Positions 53,485-64,000 of a DNA stretch of 64,000 nt are shown piece after piece. The notes under the pieces are model-generated. The model had not been told where the DNA came from. It worked only from the letters and a program-made list of their open reading frames with translations, and made no database searches. Position numbers and translations under genes: made by a program. Source of the DNA: Eubacterium sp. CAG:180 (lineage in GTDB: Bacteria > Bacillota > Clostridia > Oscillospirales > CAG-272); contig CAVGEJ010000002.1 in assembly GCA_963628215.1 (NCBI GenBank), positions 4,620-68,619 of the forward strand. The letters are read 5' to 3'. Position 1 is the first letter of the stretch. Each line of letters begins with the position of its first letter.

Positions 53485-53513
53485 TTGACAAAACGCAAAA
53501 ATTGTGCTACAAT
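53485..53513 (+). promoter_or_regulatory. sigma-A type promoter for the DUF1508 gene
   Basis: TTGACA (53485-53490), 17 nt, TACAAT (53508-53513) with TGc extended -10. Confidence 0.65.
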
Positions 53514-53547
53514 TAAAGCAGAATGTTTATTGCATGGAGGGTGTATT

Positions 53548-54840
53548 ATGGGATTGTTCAAGCTGTTCAGAAAAGACAAGAAAAAGAATGAGCAGGCATC
53601 GTCTGCCGAGCCGGTAACACCGGAGGTCAAGAAGGAAGAGCCTGTCGCCCAACCGCCCGAGGCAGTTGCCGAAGCACCGAAAACCGCTCCTGCCGTATCC
53701 GCGACGGTAGCGGAAAAGGCGTCCGAAAAAGCGCCCGAAAAGGCGGCTAAAAAGCCTGCGACGAAGCCTGCCGCAAAGAAGCCGACCGCCGCAAAACCCG
53801 CCGCAAAAGCGCCTGCCAAGTCGACCTCTGCGGAAACTATCGTTCCGAAGAAGCCGACCGCCGCGCCTGCAACTGCAGCAAAGAAAACGACTGCCGCGCC
53901 CAAAACGACCGCCGCAAAGCCTGCCGCTTCCAAAGCGCCCGCCGCAGTCCGTACATCGTCTACCCCTGTCCGTCAGGTCGGTCGCCCCTTCTTTGTGACC
54001 ACCGAAGAGGACATCCGCATCGCGTTTGACGAAGCCATTGCCGCCGCAGAAGCCGAGATCGCCGCAAACGGCGCAAAGGCTGTCGGTAAATACGAGTTCA
54101 ATCTGGAAGTTGACGGCTATCACTTCTATCTGATTGCCAACAACGGGCAGGTTCTGTTCGACAGCCCCAGTTTTACCACCCTGCTCGGCGCGCTCAACGG
54201 CATCAAGACCTTCAAGAAAATGGTTGCGAACACCGAATTCGCCATCAAAAAGGACAAATACGGTCGTTTCCGCTTCATCCTTGCCAACAAGTACTACGGC
54301 GAGAACTACAGCACCAAGGATCAGTGTCTGAAATGCGCGGAATCGGTCAAGAACTTTGCAAACAACTCCCGCATCACGCGCTATAAGCCCGACAGCGAGT
54401 CCATCGCCGCGTTTGAAGCCGCCAAGAGCACCAAGCGCACACCGGACAACCTGAACTGGGAACAGATTGCCAAGGCGGAAGCCGCCGCAGTCAAAATGGG
54501 CAAATTCGAAATCGTCAAGGAAGAGGACGGCGAATACAGCTTCTACCTTCTTGCCAACAACGGGCAGATTCTCTACTCCAGCCGCTACTATGCAAGCGAG
54601 GTTGCCTGCCGCAAGGGTGTGGAATCCTTCAAGCGCGCCGCTTATGTCGGAAACTTCTTTGTTGACCGCGATAAGTTCGGCAACTATCGGTATGTATTGA
54701 AGAACATCGGCTCTGCGCCGAGCTTCATCGGGGAATCCTATGACAACAAGCCCCAATGCGAAAAGGTCATCGACTCCGTCAAGAACTTCATCGTCACCGC
54801 GACGATTGAGGTTGAGGGCGCCGATACCGCTGAAAACTGA
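53548..54840 (+). CDS. K/A/P-rich (histone H1-like) N-terminal tail fused to four DUF1508 (YegP) repeats
   Basis: ATG at 53548 after GGAGGG. About 130 aa of AKKPA/AAKP repeats, then four units of the F..DG.Y.F.L.A.NGQ.L..S..Y.....C..G..S.K type. Confidence 0.8.
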   Translation: MGLFKLFRKDKKKNEQASSAEPVTPEVKKEEPVAQPPEAVAEAPKTAPAVSATVAEKASEKAPEKAAKKPATKPAAKKPTAAKPAAKAPAKSTSAETIVPKKPTAAPATAAKKTTAAPKTTAAKPAASKAPAAVRTSSTPVRQVGRPFFVTTEEDIRIAFDEAIAAAEAEIAANGAKAVGKYEFNLEVDGYHFYLIANNGQVLFDSPSFTTLLGALNGIKTFKKMVANTEFAIKKDKYGRFRFILANKYYGENYSTKDQCLKCAESVKNFANNSRITRYKPDSESIAAFEAAKSTKRTPDNLNWEQIAKAEAAAVKMGKFEIVKEEDGEYSFYLLANNGQILYSSRYYASEVACRKGVESFKRAAYVGNFFVDRDKFGNYRYVLKNIGSAPSFIGESYDNKPQCEKVIDSVKNFIVTATIEVEGADTAEN

Positions 54841-54887: not shown

Positions 54888-54962
54888 GACGTATTCACAT
54901 CTTTTCCGACGTCGAATACACTGGTATCAGCGGCAAGAACCGCAAGAGGAAAGGAAAACGGT

Positions 54963-55220
54963 ATGAACAGAGGTTATCTGAACAACACCTACCGGGCGGG
55001 CTACCGAGCGCCCGTCGGTCAGGCAATTCCAACCATGTCGGGCGGCGCATCCTGTCCGTGCAGGAAACCCGAACCCGACAAAACGCTGTCCCCCGCGTTG
55101 GCAATCGCGTATGTACCGAGCCAACGCTTTGAAAATCTGTATGCGGCGGGAGAGGCGCTGCGGCACGGCACGCTGTTTGCCGACCTCGATCTCCCCTACT
55201 GCGCGGGAGGCGGAAGATGA
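54963..55220 (+). CDS. cotJA: spore coat-associated protein CotJA
   Basis: ATG at 54963. LAIAYVPSQRFENLY..ALRHGTLFADLDLPY matches the CotJA family pattern. Confidence 0.8.
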   Translation: MNRGYLNNTYRAGYRAPVGQAIPTMSGGASCPCRKPEPDKTLSPALAIAYVPSQRFENLYAAGEALRHGTLFADLDLPYCAGGGR

Positions 55221-55501
55221 TGGGCAATCTGTACAACGCGGGCAACCGCGACGAACGCTCCGCACTGTTCGGGCAAATCGGAGAGGTCAGCTTCGTAATG
55301 GATGAACTTCGCCTCTTTCTTGACACGCACCCCGACTGTCGGGAAGCGCTTGCAATGTACGAAACGAACCGCGCACGGCGGCGGGAACTGATCGACAGCT
55401 ATACGGCAAAATACGGTCCGATTGAAGCATACAGCGCGGGCGGCGAAACCGAGTGGAACTGGACCGACGCGCCGATGCCGTGGGAAAGCGAGGCAAACTG
55501 A
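55217..55501 (+). CDS. cotJB: spore coat protein CotJB
   Basis: 94 aa. SFVMDELRLFLDTHPDCREALAMYE and YGPI motifs. 4-nt overlap with cotJA. Confidence 0.88.
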   Translation: MMGNLYNAGNRDERSALFGQIGEVSFVMDELRLFLDTHPDCREALAMYETNRARRRELIDSYTAKYGPIEAYSAGGETEWNWTDAPMPWESEAN

Positions 55502-55752
55502 TGTGGGAATATGAAAAGAGACTGCAATTTCCGGTTAAAATCAAAAACCCGGACGCGCGGGCGGCAAAGATCATCATCAGCCAGTACGGCGGTCCGGACG
55601 GCGAGTTGGGCGCGTCACTGCGCTATCTCTCCCAACGGTTTGCCATGCCCTACAACCGCGTTGCGGGGTTTCTGACCGATATCGGCACGGAGGTCTCAAC
55701 AATGCCGCAATCGGCGACTTCTGCGGTCTCGGATGCCTTTGCAATGGCATAA
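55501..55752 (+). pseudogene. cotJC: cotJC 5' fragment (codons 1-64 authentic, then read-through into inserted DNA)
   Basis: MWEYEKRLQFPVKIK...QYGGPDGELGASLRYLSQRF...FLTDIGTE aligns with the CotJC N-terminus. The conserved E-x-x-A-H-x-E helix that should follow is replaced by unrelated sequence from about 55693. Confidence 0.85.
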
Positions 55753-57335
55753 CTCCACTTCTCCGGAAGAAATTTCAGGTAGACATCCACATGGTTTCGG
55801 TCATGAATGACCATTTTGTCAAGCAACTGCCGGTAAAACGCGTCCTCATATTCAACGCCGTCTATCAGTTCCTCTACCGCCCGACGAATCTCCGCCGCAA
55901 GTTCCCGTTGCTTTTCCGCAAGTTCCCGCTGCTTTTCAAGACTTTCGGATCTCGCCTGCAATTCCGCAATTTCCGCGTCATATTTTGCCCGAAGTGCGGC
56001 AAACTCCTCCCGACTGATGTCACCGCCTGTATACAACTCAATCAACCCGATGCGCTTTTTCTGAAGAGCATCGCTTTTTTCTGCAATCCCTGCGGCATCC
56101 GGACCGGACCGCTCCGCAGAAATGACCGACAGGACCTGATTCGTGAGATTTTCCGCAATCCTATGGCGGTCAATCTTCAGTTGCCGGCATACGAGGTACA
56201 TCAGATGCACCGCGTCATCATTCCGGATGCTGACACCGGAACAGCCAACGGAATTCCCTGCCCGATCGGTGTGTGGACTGCCGTTTCTTGCCCCCTCCAG
56301 ACACCGCCATGCTTTGTAGATACTGCCGTCCTTTCGGGTTTTGTACCGTGCCACATAACTCGAACCGCAGATTCCGCATTTCAATTTTCCGGAAAAAAGA
56401 TAGCGGTTGCTGTGTTTCGCCTTTCCCTGCGGAGACAGCGCCTTTGCCCTCAGAATCCGATTGGCGCGTTCGTATAACTCACGGGAAATGATAGGCTCAT
56501 GGTGGTCCCGAACGATAACAAACTCCTCCTGCCCATGATTGTACTTTTTTTCGTGAGAAAGGAAATCCGGCGTGTAGGTCTTTTTCTGGACCAAATCCCC
56601 GCAATATTTCTCATTTCGGATGACCCGAAGAATCACGGTATTGCTCCACTCCTTGATTCGCATCGGAAGAATCCCCTCTTCGCGCAGTTCCCTTGCAATG
56701 ACGTGCGTCCCTTTCCCCTCGTCAACGAATTTATGGTAAATCAGGCGAACCGTCTTGGCGCCCTCCTCATTCACCGTCATCTTTCCGTCTTTCACGTCGT
56801 ACCCCAGCATACTCCGACCGAATACAACGCCCTGCTCCATCTGCCGCTTCTGCCCCCATTTCACGCGTTCCGAGGTCTTTCGGCTCTCCTCCTGTGCAAT
56901 GGACGACATAATGGCAAGCCGAAGTTCGGCATCTCCATCCAGCGTGTTGATGTTATCATTCATGAAAATCACGCCAACGCCATGCTTTTTCAAATCCCGC
57001 GTGTAGAAGATGCTGTCAAGCGTATTCCGCGCAAAGCGGGAGATTTCCTTGGTCACAATCAAATCAAAATCTCCGTTCTTGGCACATTCAATCATGCGGT
57101 TGAACTCTTTTCGCTTTTTCGTGTTGGTTCCGGAAATGCCCTCATCCGCAAACACTTCAAACAGTTCCCAGTCCGGATGCCGCTCGATATACTGTCGGAA
57201 ATACCGTTGCTGATTTTCAAACGAGTTCGCCTGATCCTCATGGTCGGTGGAAACGCGGCAGTAGGCGGCAACGCGCAGTTTGTTTTTCGGAATCTTTCGT
57301 TCCTGATTGAGTCGTTCATAATCTGATACAGGCAT
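55650..57335 (-). CDS. large serine recombinase
   Basis: 561 aa. Resolvase catalytic domain (AAYCRVSTDHEDQ, VTKEISRFARN), recombinase domain, zinc ribbon (KCGICGSSY...WRC), coiled coil. The 3' end crosses into antisense cotJC. Confidence 0.93.
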   Translation of the reverse strand: MPVSDYERLNQERKIPKNKLRVAAYCRVSTDHEDQANSFENQQRYFRQYIERHPDWELFEVFADEGISGTNTKKRKEFNRMIECAKNGDFDLIVTKEISRFARNTLDSIFYTRDLKKHGVGVIFMNDNINTLDGDAELRLAIMSSIAQEESRKTSERVKWGQKRQMEQGVVFGRSMLGYDVKDGKMTVNEEGAKTVRLIYHKFVDEGKGTHVIARELREEGILPMRIKEWSNTVILRVIRNEKYCGDLVQKKTYTPDFLSHEKKYNHGQEEFVIVRDHHEPIISRELYERANRILRAKALSPQGKAKHSNRYLFSGKLKCGICGSSYVARYKTRKDGSIYKAWRCLEGARNGSPHTDRAGNSVGCSGVSIRNDDAVHLMYLVCRQLKIDRHRIAENLTNQVLSVISAERSGPDAAGIAEKSDALQKKRIGLIELYTGGDISREEFAALRAKYDAEIAELQARSESLEKQRELAEKQRELAAEIRRAVEELIDGVEYEDAFYRQLLDKMVIHDRNHVDVYLKFLPEKWSYAIAKASETAEVADCGIVETSVPISVRNPATRL

Positions 57336-57376
57336 ATTGGATTCTCCTTTCCCGGCAGTCCGTTTGCCGTACTGTC

Positions 57377-57405
57377 AGTATAGCAAAATACAGAAAGAAT
57401 GTCAA
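57377..57405 (-). promoter_or_regulatory. near-consensus sigma-A promoter in front of the recombinase gene
   Basis: On the minus strand: TTGACA (57400-57405), 17 nt, TATACT (57377-57382) with TGc extended -10. Confidence 0.6.
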
Positions 57406-57599
57406 CCGTGCGAACTCTTCCGCGTCCCTTGCCGCTCGACAGACTCCACACAGCGGTCATATTGCGACCGATTGATTAAGCCCCTTTCCAATAAAGAGGA
57501 CAGAATCGCAATCTGATATTGGATAATAAACGCCGCGTGGCTCTGCTCCGTGATTTCGGATGTCATACCTCCCAAATCGATAAAATTTCGTTTCTTCAT
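57402..57599 (-). CDS. small hypothetical protein (65 aa) immediately upstream of the recombinase
   Basis: ATG at 57599 after GGGAGGGAGG. MKKRNFIDLGGMTSEI... No family recognised. Confidence 0.5.
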   Translation of the reverse strand: MKKRNFIDLGGMTSEITEQSHAAFIIQYQIAILSSLLERGLINRSQYDRCVESVERQGTRKSSHG

Positions 57600-57672
57600 T
57601 CTGTCCTCCCTCCCATCTGTAATAATGTATTCCGCAGGGGCTGTACGGTACCACAGTTGCCGCGCAAAATAA

Positions 57673-58023
57673 TCAGGTATCAATTCCGACGCTGACTAAT
57701 AATGCCATTTCCACCTTTCTCATTGTTTCTGCGTCTACTATTCCCACCCGCCATCGGATGCGGGATTTATCTATCGTGCGGATCTGCTCCAACAGCACCG
57801 TCGAACAGGCAAACAACCCGTCACAAACAATCGGCACATGGGTTGGTTGGTGCGATTTCTTTCCGACTTTACTGGTAACCGGTGCGACAACCGTAGTCGG
57901 GCTGTATTTATTTCCGATGTCATTCTGGATAATCAGAACCGGACGAAGCCCGCGTTGCTCCGAACCAACGGTCACTCCGAGGTCTGCGTAGTAGATTTCA
58001 CCCCTTTTGATTCTTCTCATCAT
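57673..58023 (-). CDS. mazF: type II toxin, MazF/PemK family endoribonuclease
   Basis: 116 aa. RGEIYYADLG, GSEQRGLRPVLIIQND and LLEQIRTIDKSR are typical of MazF/PemK. Confidence 0.88.
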   Translation of the reverse strand: MMRRIKRGEIYYADLGVTVGSEQRGLRPVLIIQNDIGNKYSPTTVVAPVTSKVGKKSHQPTHVPIVCDGLFACSTVLLEQIRTIDKSRIRWRVGIVDAETMRKVEMALLVSVGIDT

Positions 58024-58306
58024 TCGCTACCTCTGTACCATGCGGTAAGCCATCAATCGGAGTCGGGTTTACGAACAATTCCTGTAGCCGTCTCCCAATC
58101 TCACGGATTTCCGGATTGTCAAATCGGTTCAGTCGTTGCAGGATCAGATAAAATTCCGCTCGCGGTGCCGGTTTCGGGACAAAGCCTTTGATGAGCATCC
58201 GTAAGTAATCCGAACAATACATCCCTGCGGCTCTGGCATTCGCGTGAAGCATTCGGTTCTCCGAACGGCTCAATCGGAGTTCAAAGTGATGCTGTTTCTT
58301 TTCCAT
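57998..58306 (-). CDS. ribbon-helix-helix / MobC-like small protein, candidate cognate antitoxin
   Basis: 102 aa. FELRLSRSENRMLHANARAAGMYCSDYLRMLI fits a beta-alpha-alpha RHH. The 3' end overlaps the mazF start by 26 nt. Confidence 0.6.
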   Translation of the reverse strand: MEKKQHHFELRLSRSENRMLHANARAAGMYCSDYLRMLIKGFVPKPAPRAEFYLILQRLNRFDNPEIREIGRRLQELFVNPTPIDGLPHGTEVANDEKNQKG

Positions 58307-58720: not shown

Positions 58721-59050
58721 TTACGCAGTCGGTCGCCTGAATGTTTTCAGAATCCCCTGCATGGTAGCAAGATCATCCCCGCACAGCGTCTCGGAAAGTC
58801 TTTCAAGCAAGTCAGTTTGGATGTCGGTCAGGTATTTCATGCCCAAACGGTAGCCGTCAGCGATGTACACTCCACCGCCAGGACCGGTTACCGTAAAAAT
58901 CGGATGGACAATCGACAATACCCGAATGTCACGCATGACCGCAAAGCGTGAAACATGAAATTCGTTTGCCAAAGCTGAAGTTGTTGTCTTTCGTTTGGCA
59001 AGCAATACATCCAAAACCTGTATTCTGCGCTCTGCGGCTGTCATCGCCAT
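58721..59050 (-). CDS. HTH domain protein (DeoR/HTH_11-like N-terminus)
   Basis: 109 aa. RRIQVLDVLLAKRKTTTSALANEFHVSRFAVMRDIRVL. Confidence 0.7.
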   Translation of the reverse strand: MAMTAAERRIQVLDVLLAKRKTTTSALANEFHVSRFAVMRDIRVLSIVHPIFTVTGPGGGVYIADGYRLGMKYLTDIQTDLLERLSETLCGDDLATMQGILKTFRRPTA

Positions 59051-59617: not shown

Positions 59618-61444
59618 TCACGGCAGCGTCACATCTACAAAATGTGGGGCGTGATCGGATGTGAGAAGCGCGTAGCGGTCAAGAATACGGTGATAGTTGT
59701 TGACGGTCACATCGCCCATCACCAGCGCATGGTCAATGGCTCTGCCGGCAAAATAGGTATTGCCCGGCTTTTTCCACACGGTATATGCCTGATAGGTTTC
59801 GTCAAAGACCTGCGGATAACCGATGCGTGCGGCGCGGTCATCCTTACGTTTTGCCACCTTGAAGGCATGGGAAAAGCCCTTCTGCTCCAGCAGATACACC
59901 GGGTTGCCCTCGGCTTCCACATAGTCGTGATTAAGGTCACCACCGGCAATCACGGCAATATCCGGATACTTCTCACGGATCTGCATCGTTGTATCGTATA
60001 GCTCCAGGGAGTTGTTCTGACGAACCACCGTGTCCTGCGAGTCGTTCCACTCCCACCAATAGTGCGTGGTAATCACGGCGAACCGCTTTCCGGTTTCCTT
60101 GTTCTCCAGCACCGCCCAAGTCAAGCCCTTGGAACTGGCATCGTTTTTGCCCTTATAAAGCCGGTAGCCACTGTCGAGGCAGACATAGCGGGACGCCAAA
60201 TAATAGATGGGTGCATAATTGTTATTGCGCGTGTTCTCCTTTGGCAGGACGAACGGTGCCGCAACATAGCCAAGCCCCGCCAATCCGCTTTCAAAACCGT
60301 TGGAATGCGAGATCGGATGGAATTCCTGAAATCCCAGCACACCGGGACGGTAAGAACGGAAAATTTCCAGTTGGAGCCGCAAGCGGGTTGCGGTTTCGAT
60401 TCTGGGATTATGCCCTGAGACATTGTAGAACATCACGCGTTCATCGCCATCCAGCGGAACCGACGATGCGTCATCGGCAGATTCCATCGCATCCCCGGTG
60501 TGGGTCAGCGTATCGGGAAGCCGATAAACGCCTTCCTCCTCTGTTTTCGCGGCGGGAAAAACCGTGTCGCGCAGGTAGTTCCATGCAGAGTCAAAGCCGA
60601 ACATTCCGTCTGCCTCCACCGTAATCTTTCCTTCCGCAATCGACACCGTGTATTTCGTGCTGTCCGTGCTCTTGGTGATGAGAATTTCGTGCTCCTGCCG
60701 CGCATCGGTGTCCTTGACCAGCTTCAGCGCGTAGCCATACTGGTAGGCAAAATAGCACCGGATGTCATGGGCGGCATAGTCCTCCGATATGGTGGCATTT
60801 GCAGGCTCAACAATCTGAAAATCGCGCAGCTCCGCGCCACCGCAGGTAATGGTATCCATAGTAAAATCCCCCAAGCCCCAATGGGCAAGCGACAGCGCAA
60901 CGCGCAGATTGCCCTTGTCCTTCCATTGCGGGCTGATAATTTTGTTTGTAAAATAGGAAAGCGCTTTGACAACCGCTTCCGGCTTCTCGCCGTAGAGCAG
61001 GATATTCTGCCCCCGCACACCGACCCAGTATTTTCCCTCGCGCATAGAGGCTTTGAGGTCGGAGGTATCCGCCAGGGACGTATCCCCGACCAGAATCAGC
61101 GGTTTGTCCGCACTCCCCTGCCACACGGCATCGTTGTAGACCGGCAGCTCTGCGCCATGGTCAGTCTTGACCCGCGTGCGCAGAGCCTCCACTGCCGCCG
61201 AAACATCGGCAGAGGACATCAGCGACCGCGCAAGAACAATGGTGTAGTCGCTTTTCCCATTCCGCACAAGCTCCAGTGCAGGCTCGGCGGGCGCAGGCTC
61301 GGTGTTTGCGCCGGTTTCGGATTCACTTTCGGTTTCGGAACCGTCCGTTCCGCTGTCCGACGGTGTAATCGGATCGTTTTTACAGCTACTCGCCGTGCCG
61401 AGAAGACTCAGCACGGCGAGCAGGCAAAGAATCAGGCGTTTCAA
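59618..61444 (-). CDS. lipoprotein with C-terminal endonuclease/exonuclease/phosphatase (EEP) domain
   Basis: 608 aa. Signal peptide with ..GTASSC. EEP motifs (VLGFQEF, IAGGDLN, LTSDHAPHFVD). TTG start at 61444. Confidence 0.8.
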   Translation of the reverse strand: MKRLILCLLAVLSLLGTASSCKNDPITPSDSGTDGSETESESETGANTEPAPAEPALELVRNGKSDYTIVLARSLMSSADVSAAVEALRTRVKTDHGAELPVYNDAVWQGSADKPLILVGDTSLADTSDLKASMREGKYWVGVRGQNILLYGEKPEAVVKALSYFTNKIISPQWKDKGNLRVALSLAHWGLGDFTMDTITCGGAELRDFQIVEPANATISEDYAAHDIRCYFAYQYGYALKLVKDTDARQEHEILITKSTDSTKYTVSIAEGKITVEADGMFGFDSAWNYLRDTVFPAAKTEEEGVYRLPDTLTHTGDAMESADDASSVPLDGDERVMFYNVSGHNPRIETATRLRLQLEIFRSYRPGVLGFQEFHPISHSNGFESGLAGLGYVAAPFVLPKENTRNNNYAPIYYLASRYVCLDSGYRLYKGKNDASSKGLTWAVLENKETGKRFAVITTHYWWEWNDSQDTVVRQNNSLELYDTTMQIREKYPDIAVIAGGDLNHDYVEAEGNPVYLLEQKGFSHAFKVAKRKDDRAARIGYPQVFDETYQAYTVWKKPGNTYFAGRAIDHALVMGDVTVNNYHRILDRYALLTSDHAPHFVDVTLP

Positions 61445-61581
61445 GAAATCTGATCCTCAAATTCCGAAATGTTGAACGTATCTCCCCAACCCTTGGCGGC
61501 GTGCTGTACGGAGGCGGTCAAAACATCGGCAAATTCCATTGTAACCATGGTCATGGCAGGATTCTGATAGCTTTTTTTCAT
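61441..61581 (-). CDS. possible 46-aa small ORF translationally coupled to the EEP lipoprotein gene
   Basis: Hand-translated: MKKSYQNPAMTMVTMEFADVLTASVQHAAKGWGDTFNISEFEDQIS. AAAGGA RBS. Its TGA overlaps the TTG start of the next gene. Confidence 0.4.
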   Translation of the reverse strand: MKKSYQNPAMTMVTMEFADVLTASVQHAAKGWGDTFNISEFEDQIS

Positions 61582-61600
61582 TACTTTCTACCGTCCTTTC

Positions 61601-62827
61601 TCAGTTTGCGGCAACCGACGTGGCGCTGACGAACACGCCATCCGTGTAAACAACCGTATAAGCCGTTCCGTAAACCTTTTCCGCTCCCTCGCCCTTGGCA
61701 AGCGTCCAGGGCGTCACGGTAAAGGTGTAGGTTCCGGTCTTGGCGAGCCCTTCAATCGTGCAGGCATAGATGTAGTTTGCGCCGTGGTCCTTTGCAGTCA
61801 CCATAGTTGCGCCGTAATCGGCGGTCACGGAATCATAAACGAATTCGCAGGGCTTTTCCACCTTTTTGGTCTTGCCCGCCAGAGTGAAGTCAAAGCCGAC
61901 CGATTCATAGGCGCTGTAATCGGTTTTGTTATCGGTGGTAGCCAGGAAGCGAATACCGTAAGTTTCATCCATGTCTGCCGTCTGTGTACCGAGCAGTTGA
62001 CCAACCGATGCGCTGGTGCAGGGAAGAATGACATCGGGAAGGAGTGCGGGCTCCAGAACTTCCGTTGTACCGTTTCCGTCTTTATTCGGGAAGGTTCCAT
62101 GCACCGCCGTATCATGCTGTGTATGATTCCAGCCCCAGCAGTACGCACCTCCCGCACCAATGGTATAGGTACCGTCCTTTAAACCATCACGAATATACTG
62201 TGGCAGATCAATCTTAAACTCTACAATCGCACAATCATTGGAAACGAGTTTCCAGTCGTCTGTCCGGTCTCTCAAAAAGCTGTACCCATTGGAAGGATCA
62301 ATAGAACCTTCTTCAAAGGCTGCCCTCTTATATTGCCGCGCTGTATAGCATGCTTCCTCCTTAACCTTAAGATCAAACTGCAACCATGCGGATTTTGCGC
62401 CGGTCAGCTCTTTGCCAAGCATCTGGCGGTAGGTATCCTTCGTCCATTTTGCCGTACCATCCTCATTGGTTTCATCGTGCGAATTGACAAAATCAAACTG
62501 CGCCTCCAGAAGTCTGCGATCGCTGGTTTTCCCGTGCTGAATTTCCATGTATGCATACAGGCTGGTTCCGTCCGTTCCGAGCCACATTTTCAGTGCCCCG
62601 ACATTTTTTACGGAATCAATTGTCAGGGTCGGTTCTGCCGTCCAGCCCTCGTCCTCGCCGCGCACGCCGTCAATGGTGACGGTCTTGCCGACAAGGTTTG
62701 CCGCAACAGGTGCCACGGATGCTGTATCCGCCTCGCCCTCGGCGTGTACCGCAACCATTGCGGGGAGTGACAAAACCGCGGTCAGTCCGAGCGCGATCAG
62801 TCGTTTGAACAGGGTCTTGCGTTTCAT
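61601..62827 (-). CDS. secreted hypothetical protein (408 aa)
   Basis: AAGGAG RBS and a signal peptide ending VHAEGE. Beta-rich and Trp/Tyr-rich, so possibly carbohydrate-binding. No family recognised. Confidence 0.6.
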   Translation of the reverse strand: MKRKTLFKRLIALGLTAVLSLPAMVAVHAEGEADTASVAPVAANLVGKTVTIDGVRGEDEGWTAEPTLTIDSVKNVGALKMWLGTDGTSLYAYMEIQHGKTSDRRLLEAQFDFVNSHDETNEDGTAKWTKDTYRQMLGKELTGAKSAWLQFDLKVKEEACYTARQYKRAAFEEGSIDPSNGYSFLRDRTDDWKLVSNDCAIVEFKIDLPQYIRDGLKDGTYTIGAGGAYCWGWNHTQHDTAVHGTFPNKDGNGTTEVLEPALLPDVILPCTSASVGQLLGTQTADMDETYGIRFLATTDNKTDYSAYESVGFDFTLAGKTKKVEKPCEFVYDSVTADYGATMVTAKDHGANYIYACTIEGLAKTGTYTFTVTPWTLAKGEGAEKVYGTAYTVVYTDGVFVSATSVAAN

Positions 62828-62881
62828 TTCGTTTGTCTCCTTTTTGTTTTTATTTCCGGCGGTAAACGCTACCGCATCGGT

Positions 62882-64000
62882 TCAGATGCCGTCAAACAGG
62901 GTTGCGATTTTCTCCTCCACAGCGGGGATTTTTTTATCGATGTAAATCTTCCACGGCGTGTTGTCGCGCATGGCGTAGCCGGGCTGGTCGCAGATACCGT
63001 TTAGGGATTTGCCAAATACTCTGCCAATGTCAAAATACGCGGTGTCACGAATCAGGTTCAGCATATCCATCATTTCCGGGGAGGTGGACTTCGCCGCCTT
63101 CATGGTTGTCTCAAAAATCACCGGCGTAGAGGTACGGTAGCAGGCACTTGCAAGCGCCTCTAAGACCGCAGTATCCATCATAATCCGATTCTCCGGCGTG
63201 TTGTTCATAATACCGTACATGGTAATCGGCTGGCGGACAGCGCCGTAATAGGAGGCCTGGTCGCTGTCGTATTTCGGGCAGGGAACAACGCCAAAAGTAA
63301 ATGTCGCATCTGCGAACATCTTAATCGCAGCGCCGCTCTGTGCAACAGTAAAGAGTGACCGCCCGCTAACAAAGGAACCGGTGAAATTCGCGTCGCCCCA
63401 TTTGCTCTCATCCCCAATGAACGAGCTCTGGTGAATCTTTGCGGAAATATAGTCGATAATATCCTGTGCGCGCTGTCCCTTGAACGCCGAGGAAACCACC
63501 ATCTTTCCAACCTCATTCTTTTCGATAATCGAAACGCCGCATCCGTGCAGGAGTGCCGGAACGTCATAATAATAGGATACCAGCCCCAACTGATCGCCGG
63601 AGGAAACCCCCACCTTGTCATCAACGTTCTCGGTATCCGTATACGCGTCTACGCACATCTCCATCATTTTGGTAATCGTCCACTCATTCCGCTCTACCAG
63701 TTCATAAGGAGATGTCAGCCCTTCAATGTCATCGATCAGCTTCTGATTAAACCACACACTGTAGATCATCTGCACCAGGTTGGTGGAAATATCGCCGGTC
63801 ATGAAGAAAAGCTTGTTGTTGATTTCAATCTTTTCCACCAGTTGCTGCGACCACCACGGCGCTGCGGGATCAATATAGCTGTTCTGAATCTGATTCAAGG
63901 GAAGAAAATGTCCGTCAGTTGTAGCAATTGAGGCATTCTGCGTCTTTGCCGCAATCACATCCCAGTAGATACCGCCCATTTTAGAGGTATCCAGCGTTTG
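62882..64000 (-). CDS. ABC transporter extracellular solute-binding protein (partial; 5' end beyond the window)
   Basis: The reading frame stays open to position 64000. Large family-1 SBP-like sequence (NNKLFFMTGDIS, FGVVPCPKYD). Confidence 0.75.
   Translation of the reverse strand, partial: QTLDTSKMGGIYWDVIAAKTQNASIATTDGHFLPLNQIQNSYIDPAAPWWSQQLVEKIEINNKLFFMTGDISTNLVQMIYSVWFNQKLIDDIEGLTSPYELVERNEWTITKMMEMCVDAYTDTENVDDKVGVSSGDQLGLVSYYYDVPALLHGCGVSIIEKNEVGKMVVSSAFKGQRAQDIIDYISAKIHQSSFIGDESKWGDANFTGSFVSGRSLFTVAQSGAAIKMFADATFTFGVVPCPKYDSDQASYYGAVRQPITMYGIMNNTPENRIMMDTAVLEALASACYRTSTPVIFETTMKAAKSTSPEMMDMLNLIRDTAYFDIGRVFGKSLNGICDQPGYAMRDNTPWKIYIDKKIPAVEEKIATLFDGI

Follow-up and report, generated by a model that had tools for sequence, protein, structure and literature searches.

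We analyzed a 64,000-nucleotide stretch of DNA from Eubacterium sp. CAG:180 (assembly GCA_963628215.1, contig CAVGEJ010000002.1, positions 4,620 to 68,619), hereafter called the window, in which the spore-coat gene cotJC of a cotJABC operon breaks off directly beside an oppositely oriented gene for a large serine recombinase (LSR). A first-pass annotation of this DNA had read the arrangement as an intervening element of the skin/SPbeta type, that is, mobile DNA that splits a sporulation gene and is excised by the mother cell. All functional statements made here rest on sequence comparison. The features that lie at the break are as follows:

54897-54922, plus strand: promoter-like element with a -10 region of the mother-cell sigma-E/K type, AC-N16-AATACACT, 5' of cotJA (consensus match)
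54963-55220, plus strand: cotJA (Pfam PF11007, CotJA; E 1.7e-14)
55217-55501, plus strand: cotJB (Pfam PF12652, CotJB; E 5.8e-27)
55501-55685, plus strand: host-derived 5' fragment of cotJC, codons 1 to ~62 (Mn_catalase match and alignment with intact alleles)
55650-57335, minus strand: LSR of 561 residues (Pfam PF00239, PF07508 and PF13408)
55660-55710, no strand assigned: attL, with an inferred GG crossover at 55684-55685 and the element-side arm CACGGAGGTCTCAACAATGCCG (comparison with attB of the intact allele L003 and analogy with relatives)

The cotJC gene is broken before its first metal-binding helix

The three cotJ genes are closely packed, with the stop of cotJA and the start of cotJB overlapping as ATGA and the stop of cotJB and the start of cotJC as TGATG. 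Pfam matches and the sequence itself agree with the earlier description of cotJA, cotJB, and the first 64 codons of cotJC as intact and TGATG-linked. The cotJC open reading frame (ORF) spans 55501-55752, and its residues 1-64 match positions 1-65 of the Mn_catalase model (PF05067, E 1.5e-17), so that 65 of the 284 model positions are covered. After residue 64, the frame reads VSTMPQSATSAVSDAFAMA as it runs through element DNA to a stop at 55750-55752. The loss of the CotJC continuation at this codon, which the first-pass annotation had pointed out, is real: the Pfam match stops there, and intact alleles continue. The break falls exactly before the ELAHLEM motif, and the full ferritin-like fold of manganese catalases, with its ExxH metal-binding helices, is not present. 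The 83-residue product is a fragment that has none of the metal ligands and cannot function as CotJC.

In Bacillus subtilis, cotJ is transcribed with sigma-E, and its mother-cell expression is established; by that measure, the insertion in cotJC of the cotJABC operon would have a mother-cell sporulation gene as its target. The promoter-like match upstream of cotJA suggests that the operon of the window organism would be expressed in the mother cell as well, and the corresponding -10 region is of the CATAC(T/A)AT type in the cotJ operons of relatives' genomes.

The gene at the break, described beforehand as a 561-residue LSR in the opposite orientation, is confirmed as such by its domains and coordinates. 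It contains a Resolvase catalytic domain (PF00239, E 2.9e-33, residues 22-170) with the catalytic-serine motif YCRVS(29)T, found in the translation as AAYCRVS(29)TDHEDQ, and C-terminal Recombinase (PF07508, E 2.7e-22) and Zn_ribbon_recom (PF13408, E 4e-08) domains. The protein matches the integrase family PHROG 95 (E 2e-132), and its best full-length match in the PDB is the SPbeta integrase (9dxh), aligned over residues 68-510. Among deposited phages, we found no close relative, the best match being an unannotated fecal fragment at 47.7%. From this domain architecture, the LSR would be expected to catalyze attP x attB integration and, together with a recombination directionality factor (RDF), attL x attR excision.

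Intact alleles reveal the empty site and the junction

Uninterrupted cotJC alleles are present in metagenome contigs of near-identical strains (L002 and L003), which share 95% nucleotide identity with the window over cotJB and cotJC. These alleles align to the window through base 55693 and then continue ELAHLEMIGAIV, and the continuation past the break, AACTGGCGCACCTTGAAATG, encodes ELAHLEM. Because these strains carry the site empty and the window carries it filled, the insertion is polymorphic within essentially one species. In the otherwise intact allele of L003, an in-frame TGA at positions 840-848 replaces a conserved glycine codon (VDFTT(stop)VYPQS), possibly a nonsense polymorphism, possibly a sequencing error.

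The filled junction was assembled independently in SRR13434610 (L001 and L273) and occurs in a 91%-related element in L274 (SRR25572014), which excludes a chimeric assembly. The same material bears on the idea that the contig is chimeric or that CotJC of this clade naturally ends near residue 83, an outcome that the first-pass annotation had itself proposed to check. Our first homology search returned short proteins only, as this idea would predict. The word-indexed protein search, however, appears to favor targets of about the query's own length (64-112 residues with a 64-residue query, 44-95 residues with a 54-residue query), and we therefore rejected the short close homologues as evidence of prevalence. 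Near-identical strains carry the gene uninterrupted, full-length proteins of ~200 residues exist in the clade, and the tails that follow residue 64 vary from one element family to another and correspond to recombinase 3' ends read in antisense. With the junction also reproduced in independent assemblies, we give an artifact or a naturally short CotJC next to no probability.

In relatives, all differences between the attL and attR cores lie to the right of a GG dinucleotide, at which the attP dyad is also centered; L198 is an example, with attL GGTAGAGAAG versus attR GGTACGGAAG. By analogy, the crossover in the window is most likely the GG at 55684-55685, and bases 55686-55693 (CACGGAGG) are most likely the element's own arm, mimicking the host Thr-Glu codons. 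The original placement of the break after codon 64 thus stands as the point where homology to intact alleles ends (55693), whereas the crossover itself most likely lies earlier. The alignment of attL with an uninterrupted cotJC, suggested earlier as a check, was made with L002 and L003 and underlies, with the analogy to relatives, the attB and crossover assignments. In the resulting scheme, attB is GATATCGGCACNGAGGAACTGGCGCACC, attP is the element's right end joined to GGCACGGAGGTCTCAACAATGCCG, and the attR expected for the window element is GG-CACGGAGG-AACTGGCGCACC... joined to CotJC codons 65 to ~200.

Host cotJC DNA contains the stop codon of the recombinase gene (55650-55652), and the two ORFs overlap by ~100 nucleotides. 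As a consequence, the last ~11 recombinase codons are cotJC antisense and would change on excision. Computed for L241, the recombinase tail passes from ...ASVP-ISVRSALHSAYGIV(stop) in the integrated state to ...ASVP-TEALEMFHILKNALLIYVMTIQFEEV(stop) in the excised state.

A recombinase family dedicated to one site in cotJC

We scanned the window LSR against species-representative genomes and identified 251 relatives, the best 80 of which, 68-77% identical to the window LSR, were used for locus counts. These 80 come from Lachnospiraceae, Oscillospiraceae, Ruminococcaceae, Acutalibacteraceae, and other hosts, and include the isolates Bacterium D16-51, Lachnospiraceae bacterium JLR.KK009 (CP143549), Yeguia hominis NSJ-40, Hominenteromicrobium mulieris CLA-AA-H250, Parablautia muri D42-62, and Dorea sp. 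5-2. At 65 of the 80 loci, the LSR 3' end directly abuts an antisense cotJC that ends at codon ~64, with cotJB beside it. The cotJC 5' fragment lies >200 nucleotides further downstream of the LSR at six loci, the arrangement of LSR and cotJC is inverted at one, cotJC is missing beside the LSR at six, and the context could not be judged at two. LSR relatives from IMG/VR show the same cotJC adjacency down to 47% identity. The LSR of this family is specific for the cotJC segment that encodes DIGTEE, where the first metal-binding helix begins, and integrates there with a GG crossover.

Relatives also display the other end of the insertion. In 14 genomes, the strand with the 5' fragment also carries a cotJC 3' fragment less than 10 kb away, and in the 12 of these with both ends visible, the element measures ~3.0-10 kb. 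A larger member of ~42 kb is seen in the IMG/VR contig L024+L129, where the 3' cotJC fragment is uninterrupted to its natural stop. In L241, L259, and L267, the reading frame ...LTDIGTEELAHLEM... is regained when attL is joined to attR, and the join is likewise in frame in L008+L011, which derive from one sample at similar coverage. Both halves of cotJC in a restorable frame are therefore present in L241, L259, L267, L008+L011, and L024+L129.

The attP site reconstructed from these ends is short and dyad symmetric: it measures 48 bp, has GG at its center, and is bounded by outer inverted repeats of 10 bp that match perfectly, GGAACATTTC and GAAATGTTCC. The window shows the attL half only. As real DNA, attP is found in 10 metagenome contigs, where it lies beside the LSR 3' end without cotJC; terminal overlap that would indicate circularity was seen in none of the 10, and two patterns gave no attP match in IMG/VR. 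Two of these 10 contigs carry pilin/sortase, CHAP-lysozyme, and MacB genes and have the look of an integrative and conjugative element (ICE). Taken at the level of the sequence, the window very probably represents the left end of an integrative mobile element that its LSR inserted into cotJC in a precisely reversible manner.

Several further arrangements were observed within the family. An inverted variant (L019:1091-2968 and L263:4006-6054) has an LSR, 71-73% identical, at the element's right end on the cotJC strand, and the ORF of this LSR passes via the att core, in frame, into cotJC codons 62-136. When read toward the center, the two attP arms encode one and the same peptide, (R/W)NIS(G/D)AS, which indicates that the 3' coding end of the recombinase is its own binding half-site and can lie on either arm. 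Two or three tandem LSR genes precede the cotJC-type LSR in L022, L023, L029, L031 (IMG/VR), and L234, which recalls the gin element with its three recombinases.

The recombination module moves between hosts and element types

LSR identity and host identity are uncorrelated (Spearman 0.09), and 46 pairs of LSRs that are at least 98% identical adjoin CotJB and CotJC 5' sequences that are only ~57% identical. This argues that the recombination module moves horizontally and is common to different kinds of element. Among relatives that have this LSR module, some are ICE-like and others are IMG/VR-predicted proviruses. At the small end, the 3.3-kb L240 holds only the LSR, a small ORF, and a toxin-antitoxin pair, and other minimal members hold the LSR, the small ORF, and one or two genes (Fic, ParA, or AAA ATPase). 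The ~3.0-kb L259 has the same toxin-antitoxin pair as L240, and its small ORF was not detected by blastp. We considered the intact gene halves as a sign of purifying selection and rejected this, since the lack of correlation between LSR and host identity indicates that the insertions are recent.

This breadth of use fits an ordinary integrative element, whether mobilizable, conjugative, or a prophage, for which a conserved stretch of cotJC is a safe place to land and which excises for transfer only, leaving cotJC broken and its loss tolerated. A module that has spread across families and serves ICE-like elements, IMG/VR-predicted proviruses, and minimal toxin-antitoxin islands, with attP forms that exist without a link to sporulation, is what one would expect if cotJC were simply inactivated by insertion. 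What insertion for transfer leaves unexplained is the persistence of ~3-kb elements that have no transfer genes, as well as the promoter arrangement described below.

A small ORF with a separate putative promoter precedes the recombinase gene

Upstream of the LSR gene, on the same strand, the window contains:

57353-57369, minus strand: hairpin CGGCA...TGCCG in the LSR 5' untranslated region, just upstream of the ribosome-binding site GGAAAGGAG
57377-57405, minus strand: predicted LSR promoter of the sigma-70/sigma-A type, TTGACA-N17-TATACT with TG before the -10 region (11 of 12 consensus matches)
57402-57599, minus strand: small ORF of 65 residues, a candidate RDF, predicted to form a helical hairpin
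57624-57649, minus strand: promoter-like element AC-N16-AATACATT upstream of the small ORF, resembling the element upstream of cotJA

Homologues of the small ORF lie directly upstream of the LSR in ~69 related loci, elements of ~3.3-3.8 kb among them, and the order is constant: a promoter-like site, the small ORF (53-75 residues), usually a terminator hairpin, a sigma-A-type promoter, a hairpin in the 5' untranslated region, and the LSR. In the window, the TGA stop of the small ORF lies inside the -35 hexamer of the LSR promoter. A similar sigma-A-type site precedes the LSR in 55 of 69 related loci, and the 5-6-bp stem of the hairpin is maintained through compensatory changes (CGGCAA/TTGTCG, CAGTAA/TTACTG, and CGGTAA/TTACCG; L193-L272).

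Upstream of the small ORF, the motif ATA-N15-18-CATA(C/T)AnT is found in 43 of the 69 loci, its background rate being 0.03 per kb; as the loci are homologous, this count measures conservation rather than independent occurrence. The motif matches what we take to be the mother-cell sigma-E consensus (Helmann and Moran). Within the 64-kb window, AC-N16-MATAYAYT has two matches only, one 5' of cotJA and one 5' of the small ORF, where 0.19 would be expected. The conserved GGTACAA in the promoter spacer was considered as a SpoIIID box and set aside, being only a near match to the published consensus. A sigma-E/K-like promoter match at a fixed position before the small ORF, resembling that of cotJ, next to a separate sigma-A promoter for the LSR, has no explanation if the element merely inactivates cotJC and leaves for transfer.

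The AlphaFold2 model of the small protein has helices at residues 9-38 and 44-62 with a mean pLDDT of 79. The protein has no match in Pfam, NCBIfam, or PDB profiles, and Foldseek on the model returned nothing significant, so that a family assignment was dropped. The layout parallels that of Clostridioides difficile skin and of SPbeta, and on this ground, we propose that the small protein may act as the RDF.

The right end probably lies beyond the visible sequence

Beyond the small ORF, the remaining ORFs toward the end of the window are as follows:

57673-58023, minus strand: MazF/PemK toxin (PF02452, E 2.8e-32)
57998-58306, minus strand: ribbon-helix-helix antitoxin-like gene (PF21983, E 1.4e-06)
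58721-59050, minus strand: helix-turn-helix protein (HTH_11, PF08279, E 1.6e-06)
59618-64000, minus strand: probable cargo by its neighborhood in relatives, comprising a 608-residue lipoprotein-like protein with the endonuclease/exonuclease/phosphatase (EEP) fold, a 408-residue secreted protein, and a partial ORF of 365 residues

Searches by tblastn with B. subtilis CotJC and two clade-specific 3' sequences found no 3' cotJC fragment in the 64-kb window, and two DNA-pattern searches found no attR there. The earlier statement that no ORF like CotJC residues 65-189 occurs between 55.7 and 64.0 kb is thus upheld and extends to the full 64 kb. It follows that the element would be >8.3 kb, with its right end beyond base 64000, where the 3' fragment of this genome should be found. 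Searches for exact protein matches that might extend the contig gave only 6.3-kb and 2.5-kb Logan contigs of SRR13434610. Relatives of the EEP-fold gene directly adjoin the small ORF-LSR module in L274 and L275, which identifies this gene as cargo and carries the element to at least 61.4 kb; the 61.4-64.0-kb region probably belongs to it as well. Past the LSR, the window element shows no similarity to the elements of relatives.

The missing right end could also mean that deletion or rearrangement has affected attR and the cotJC 3' part in this genome, which would leave the element trapped and cotJC permanently a pseudogene. Besides the lack of attR or a 3' fragment within 8.3 kb, the promoter of the window small ORF is a degenerate version of the family consensus, and six of the 80 related loci have no cotJC beside the LSR, as might be expected of a dead remnant. 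Against this, the window retains a full-length LSR ORF that includes the catalytic motif, along with an intact small ORF, attL, and pair of promoter-like sites, and the same junction recurs in independent samples. Since family members reach ~42 kb, a right end past the window is unremarkable, and we regard a dead remnant as improbable.

Toxin-antitoxin pairs, either MazF/PemK or RelE-like with Phd-like, are the commonest neighbors of the small ORF-LSR module (window 57673-58306; L198, L221, L223, L231, L245, L004, L259, and L240), and in ~3-kb elements, such a pair is the sole cargo. The window MazF gave 45 tblastn matches over all collected loci, several of which adjoin the module (L221, L223, and L231); the ribbon-helix-helix gene has a weak NikA-like match in Pfam and is more likely an antitoxin. 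The pairs may act as addiction modules that keep the element in the germ line. In the eight ORFs between 55.6 and 64.0 kb, PHROGs gave no phage structural or packaging genes, and the annotated matches were an integrase, MazF, and one PHROG of unknown function for the helix-turn-helix protein; the visible 8.3 kb does not have the makeup of a prophage. No relaxase, coupling protein, or type IV secretion genes were found in this visible part.

Elsewhere in the family, the right end of the site-1 element in L011:133-9970, from the same sample as L008, carries fructan-utilization cargo (GH32, GH172, and a ROK regulator). On the other side of the operon, just 5' of cotJA, the window encodes a 451-residue protein (53485-54840) whose long N-terminal half is rich in Ala, Lys, Pro, and Thr and which has DUF1508 repeats.

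Mobile elements enter cotJC at several conserved motifs

The site at codon 64 (site 1) is one of at least three separate cotJC hotspots (codons ~29, 64, and 136), all of which lie on invariant protein motifs. At codon ~29 (SQY|GGPDGELGA), a different LSR, 28-31% identical to that of the window, has its 3' end upstream of the break on the cotJC strand and reads toward the junction. Examples are L016:2499-2609, L017:4144-4248, L018:1641-1760, L025, L027, L028, and most of L035-L114. Among the 80 IMG/VR loci listed, most cotJC matches begin at residues ~20-31, and many of the contigs are 30-50 kb long.

At codon 136 (EDLAA[D/E]|QKAR), which falls in the second metal-binding helix, breaks followed by many different tails occur in more than 55 protein sequences (for example, proteins P0121-P0188, L011:10001-10279, L013:10001-10285, and L019:2753-2968). 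The DNA to the right of this break is ICE-like (TraG/VirD4, DUF6017, and Maff2) or belongs to an IMG/VR-predicted provirus. A fourth hotspot possibly exists near codon ~176 (QRFGEA|L); an apparent peak of breakpoints at residue 77 was discarded as an alignment artifact from chance similarity in the element-derived tail. In some genomes (L198, L011, and L013), cotJC is in three pieces, cut at sites 1 and 2 or, in L198, at sites 0 and 1.

That unrelated elements strike cotJC at three or more sites, twice in some genomes, is expected of a dispensable gene and thus agrees with plain insertional inactivation. Such inactivation does not explain why all of the hotspots lie in a mother-cell gene, a pattern that is functional for sigK, spsM, spoVFB, spoVR, and gerE.

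Comparison with established intervening elements

Established intervening elements are skin, SPbeta, vfbin, vrin, gin, and yin. The closest parallel in layout is skinCd, the C. difficile element that splits sigK. Its LSR, CD1231, is expressed constitutively from a sigma-A-driven promoter with inverted repeats near the ribosome-binding site, and its 72-residue RDF, CD1234, depends on sigma-E and SpoIIID, which confines excision to the mother cell (PMC5025042). The cotJC element resembles skinCd in having an LSR at its edge and a mother-cell sporulation gene as the target that it splits, a predicted sigma-A-type recombinase promoter, inverted repeats near the ribosome-binding site, and a separate small (~60-70 residues) acidic/helical protein preceded by a match to a sigma-E-type promoter. 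It differs in that its target is a non-regulatory coat protein gene and not a sigma factor gene, and in that, apart from the LSR fold, no relationship of the window LSR and small protein to CD1231 and CD1234 is detectable. Unlike skinCd, moreover, the cotJC module is common to ICE-like, prophage-like, and ~3-kb elements that spread horizontally, and it is known here from sequence.

With SPbeta, which interrupts spsM and encodes SprA and SprB, the element has in common an LSR, an att core within coding sequence, and, as the joined ends of relatives show, in-frame reconstitution of the target. The two-component logic of a constitutive integrase and an RDF with a mother-cell promoter, established for SPbeta through the own mother-cell promoter of sprB (PMC4191935), would apply to the window by inference. 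SPbeta is a 134-kb active phage, whereas the visible 8.3 kb of the window is without phage genes and has its small ORF directly beside the LSR. The gin element in gerE of Bacillus cereus ATCC 10987, with GirC and GirX, is likewise a non-phage element with serine recombinase(s) and an accessory factor, and shows that intervening elements need not be prophages (PMC5595907). It is 28.6 kb long and has three recombinases and gerE as its target, in contrast to the cotJC family, which extends down to ~3.0 kb with a single LSR.

The first-pass annotation had left it in doubt whether cotJC had been reported as a target, and two surveys settle this point. Abe et al. 2013 is cited for cotJC, gerE, yaaH, and yhbH as targets (bioRxiv 10.1101/2021.11.22.469490), and Galperin et al. 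2022 mention a skin-like element in cotJC of Laceyella sacchari (bioRxiv 10.1101/2022.02.25.481979). These insertions share the target gene and are skin-like or phage- or transposon-related, and they appear as one-line mentions concerning Bacilli, as opposed to the gut Clostridia described here. Experimental work on cotJC insertions was not found in the literature searched, and neither were a dedicated LSR family, its att sites and regulation, its horizontal spread in gut Clostridia, or three cotJC hotspots. While cotJC as a target is already known, the dedicated LSR family with its wide spread and the three hotspots thus appear to be undescribed in that literature.

A model for excision during sporulation

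Together, relatives with both ends visible, in-frame restoration, free attP, and a regulatory layout like that of skinCd bear out the skin/SPbeta-type layout first proposed for this locus. In the model that we favor, the LSR would be made constitutively from its sigma-A promoter and, alone, would only integrate. The 65-residue helical protein encoded upstream of the LSR would be the RDF, transcribed from a mother-cell (sigma-E/K-type) promoter similar to that of the cotJ operon. Its sporulation-specific synthesis would induce recombination between attL and attR within the mother cell, the element would leave as a circle, and cotJC would be rebuilt in frame, while the forespore chromosome would retain the element. 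We consider this full developmental model, which is drawn from sequence features, somewhat better than an even bet.

Several points weigh against it. The attP forms are at least partly those of ICE-like elements, which would excise for transfer regardless of sporulation, and because LSR and host identity are uncorrelated, the insertions are recent and the intact gene halves are no sign of selection for excision. The window holds neither the cotJC 3' fragment nor attR, and the small protein matches no known RDF or family. The promoter calls are consensus matches: the AC-N16-MATAYAYT pattern was defined post hoc from the same two sites that it finds, and the window small-ORF promoter, with no -35 ATA and with A in place of C at the first -10 position, is weaker than those of most relatives. 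The effects of cotJC mutation in B. subtilis and C. difficile are mild. Published phenotypes (PMC11222575) suggest that loss of the gene may be tolerated, as an element that merely lands in cotJC and moves on would require. With these points set beside the promoter layout, the minimal elements, and the concentration of hotspots in a mother-cell gene, we judge simple insertional inactivation to be the main alternative, though less likely than not.

Among programmed DNA rearrangements in bacteria, the intervening elements excised during development are a classic case. To our knowledge, the characterized cases all come from Bacillus, C. difficile, or C. botulinum. If correct, the developmental model would extend the phenomenon to dominant spore-forming gut commensals of the Lachnospiraceae, Oscillospiraceae, Ruminococcaceae, and Acutalibacteraceae, and would provide a compact recombination unit of ~2.2 kb with a defined attB and attP. 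The culturable carrier strains among the relatives permit direct tests of excision, and the LSR and its att sites are candidates for genome-engineering toolkits. For annotation, attL/attR pairs should be checked before such cotJC genes are labeled pseudogenes.

More tentatively, cotJC may serve the mobile elements of gut Clostridia as a dedicated docking gene, with the site-1 module as a portable, sporulation-timed excision cassette that is swapped among prophages, ICEs, and ~3-kb toxin-antitoxin islands, an extension that we hold to be possible rather than probable. The module would then consist of a sigma-E/K-driven small RDF, a sigma-A-driven LSR, and attP within the recombinase 3' end, and the rebuilding of a three-piece cotJC would need two LSR/RDF systems firing in the mother cell. 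Were this so, spore-coat composition, and perhaps the oxidative-stress resistance of the spore, would depend on mobile-element status in hundreds of gut species.

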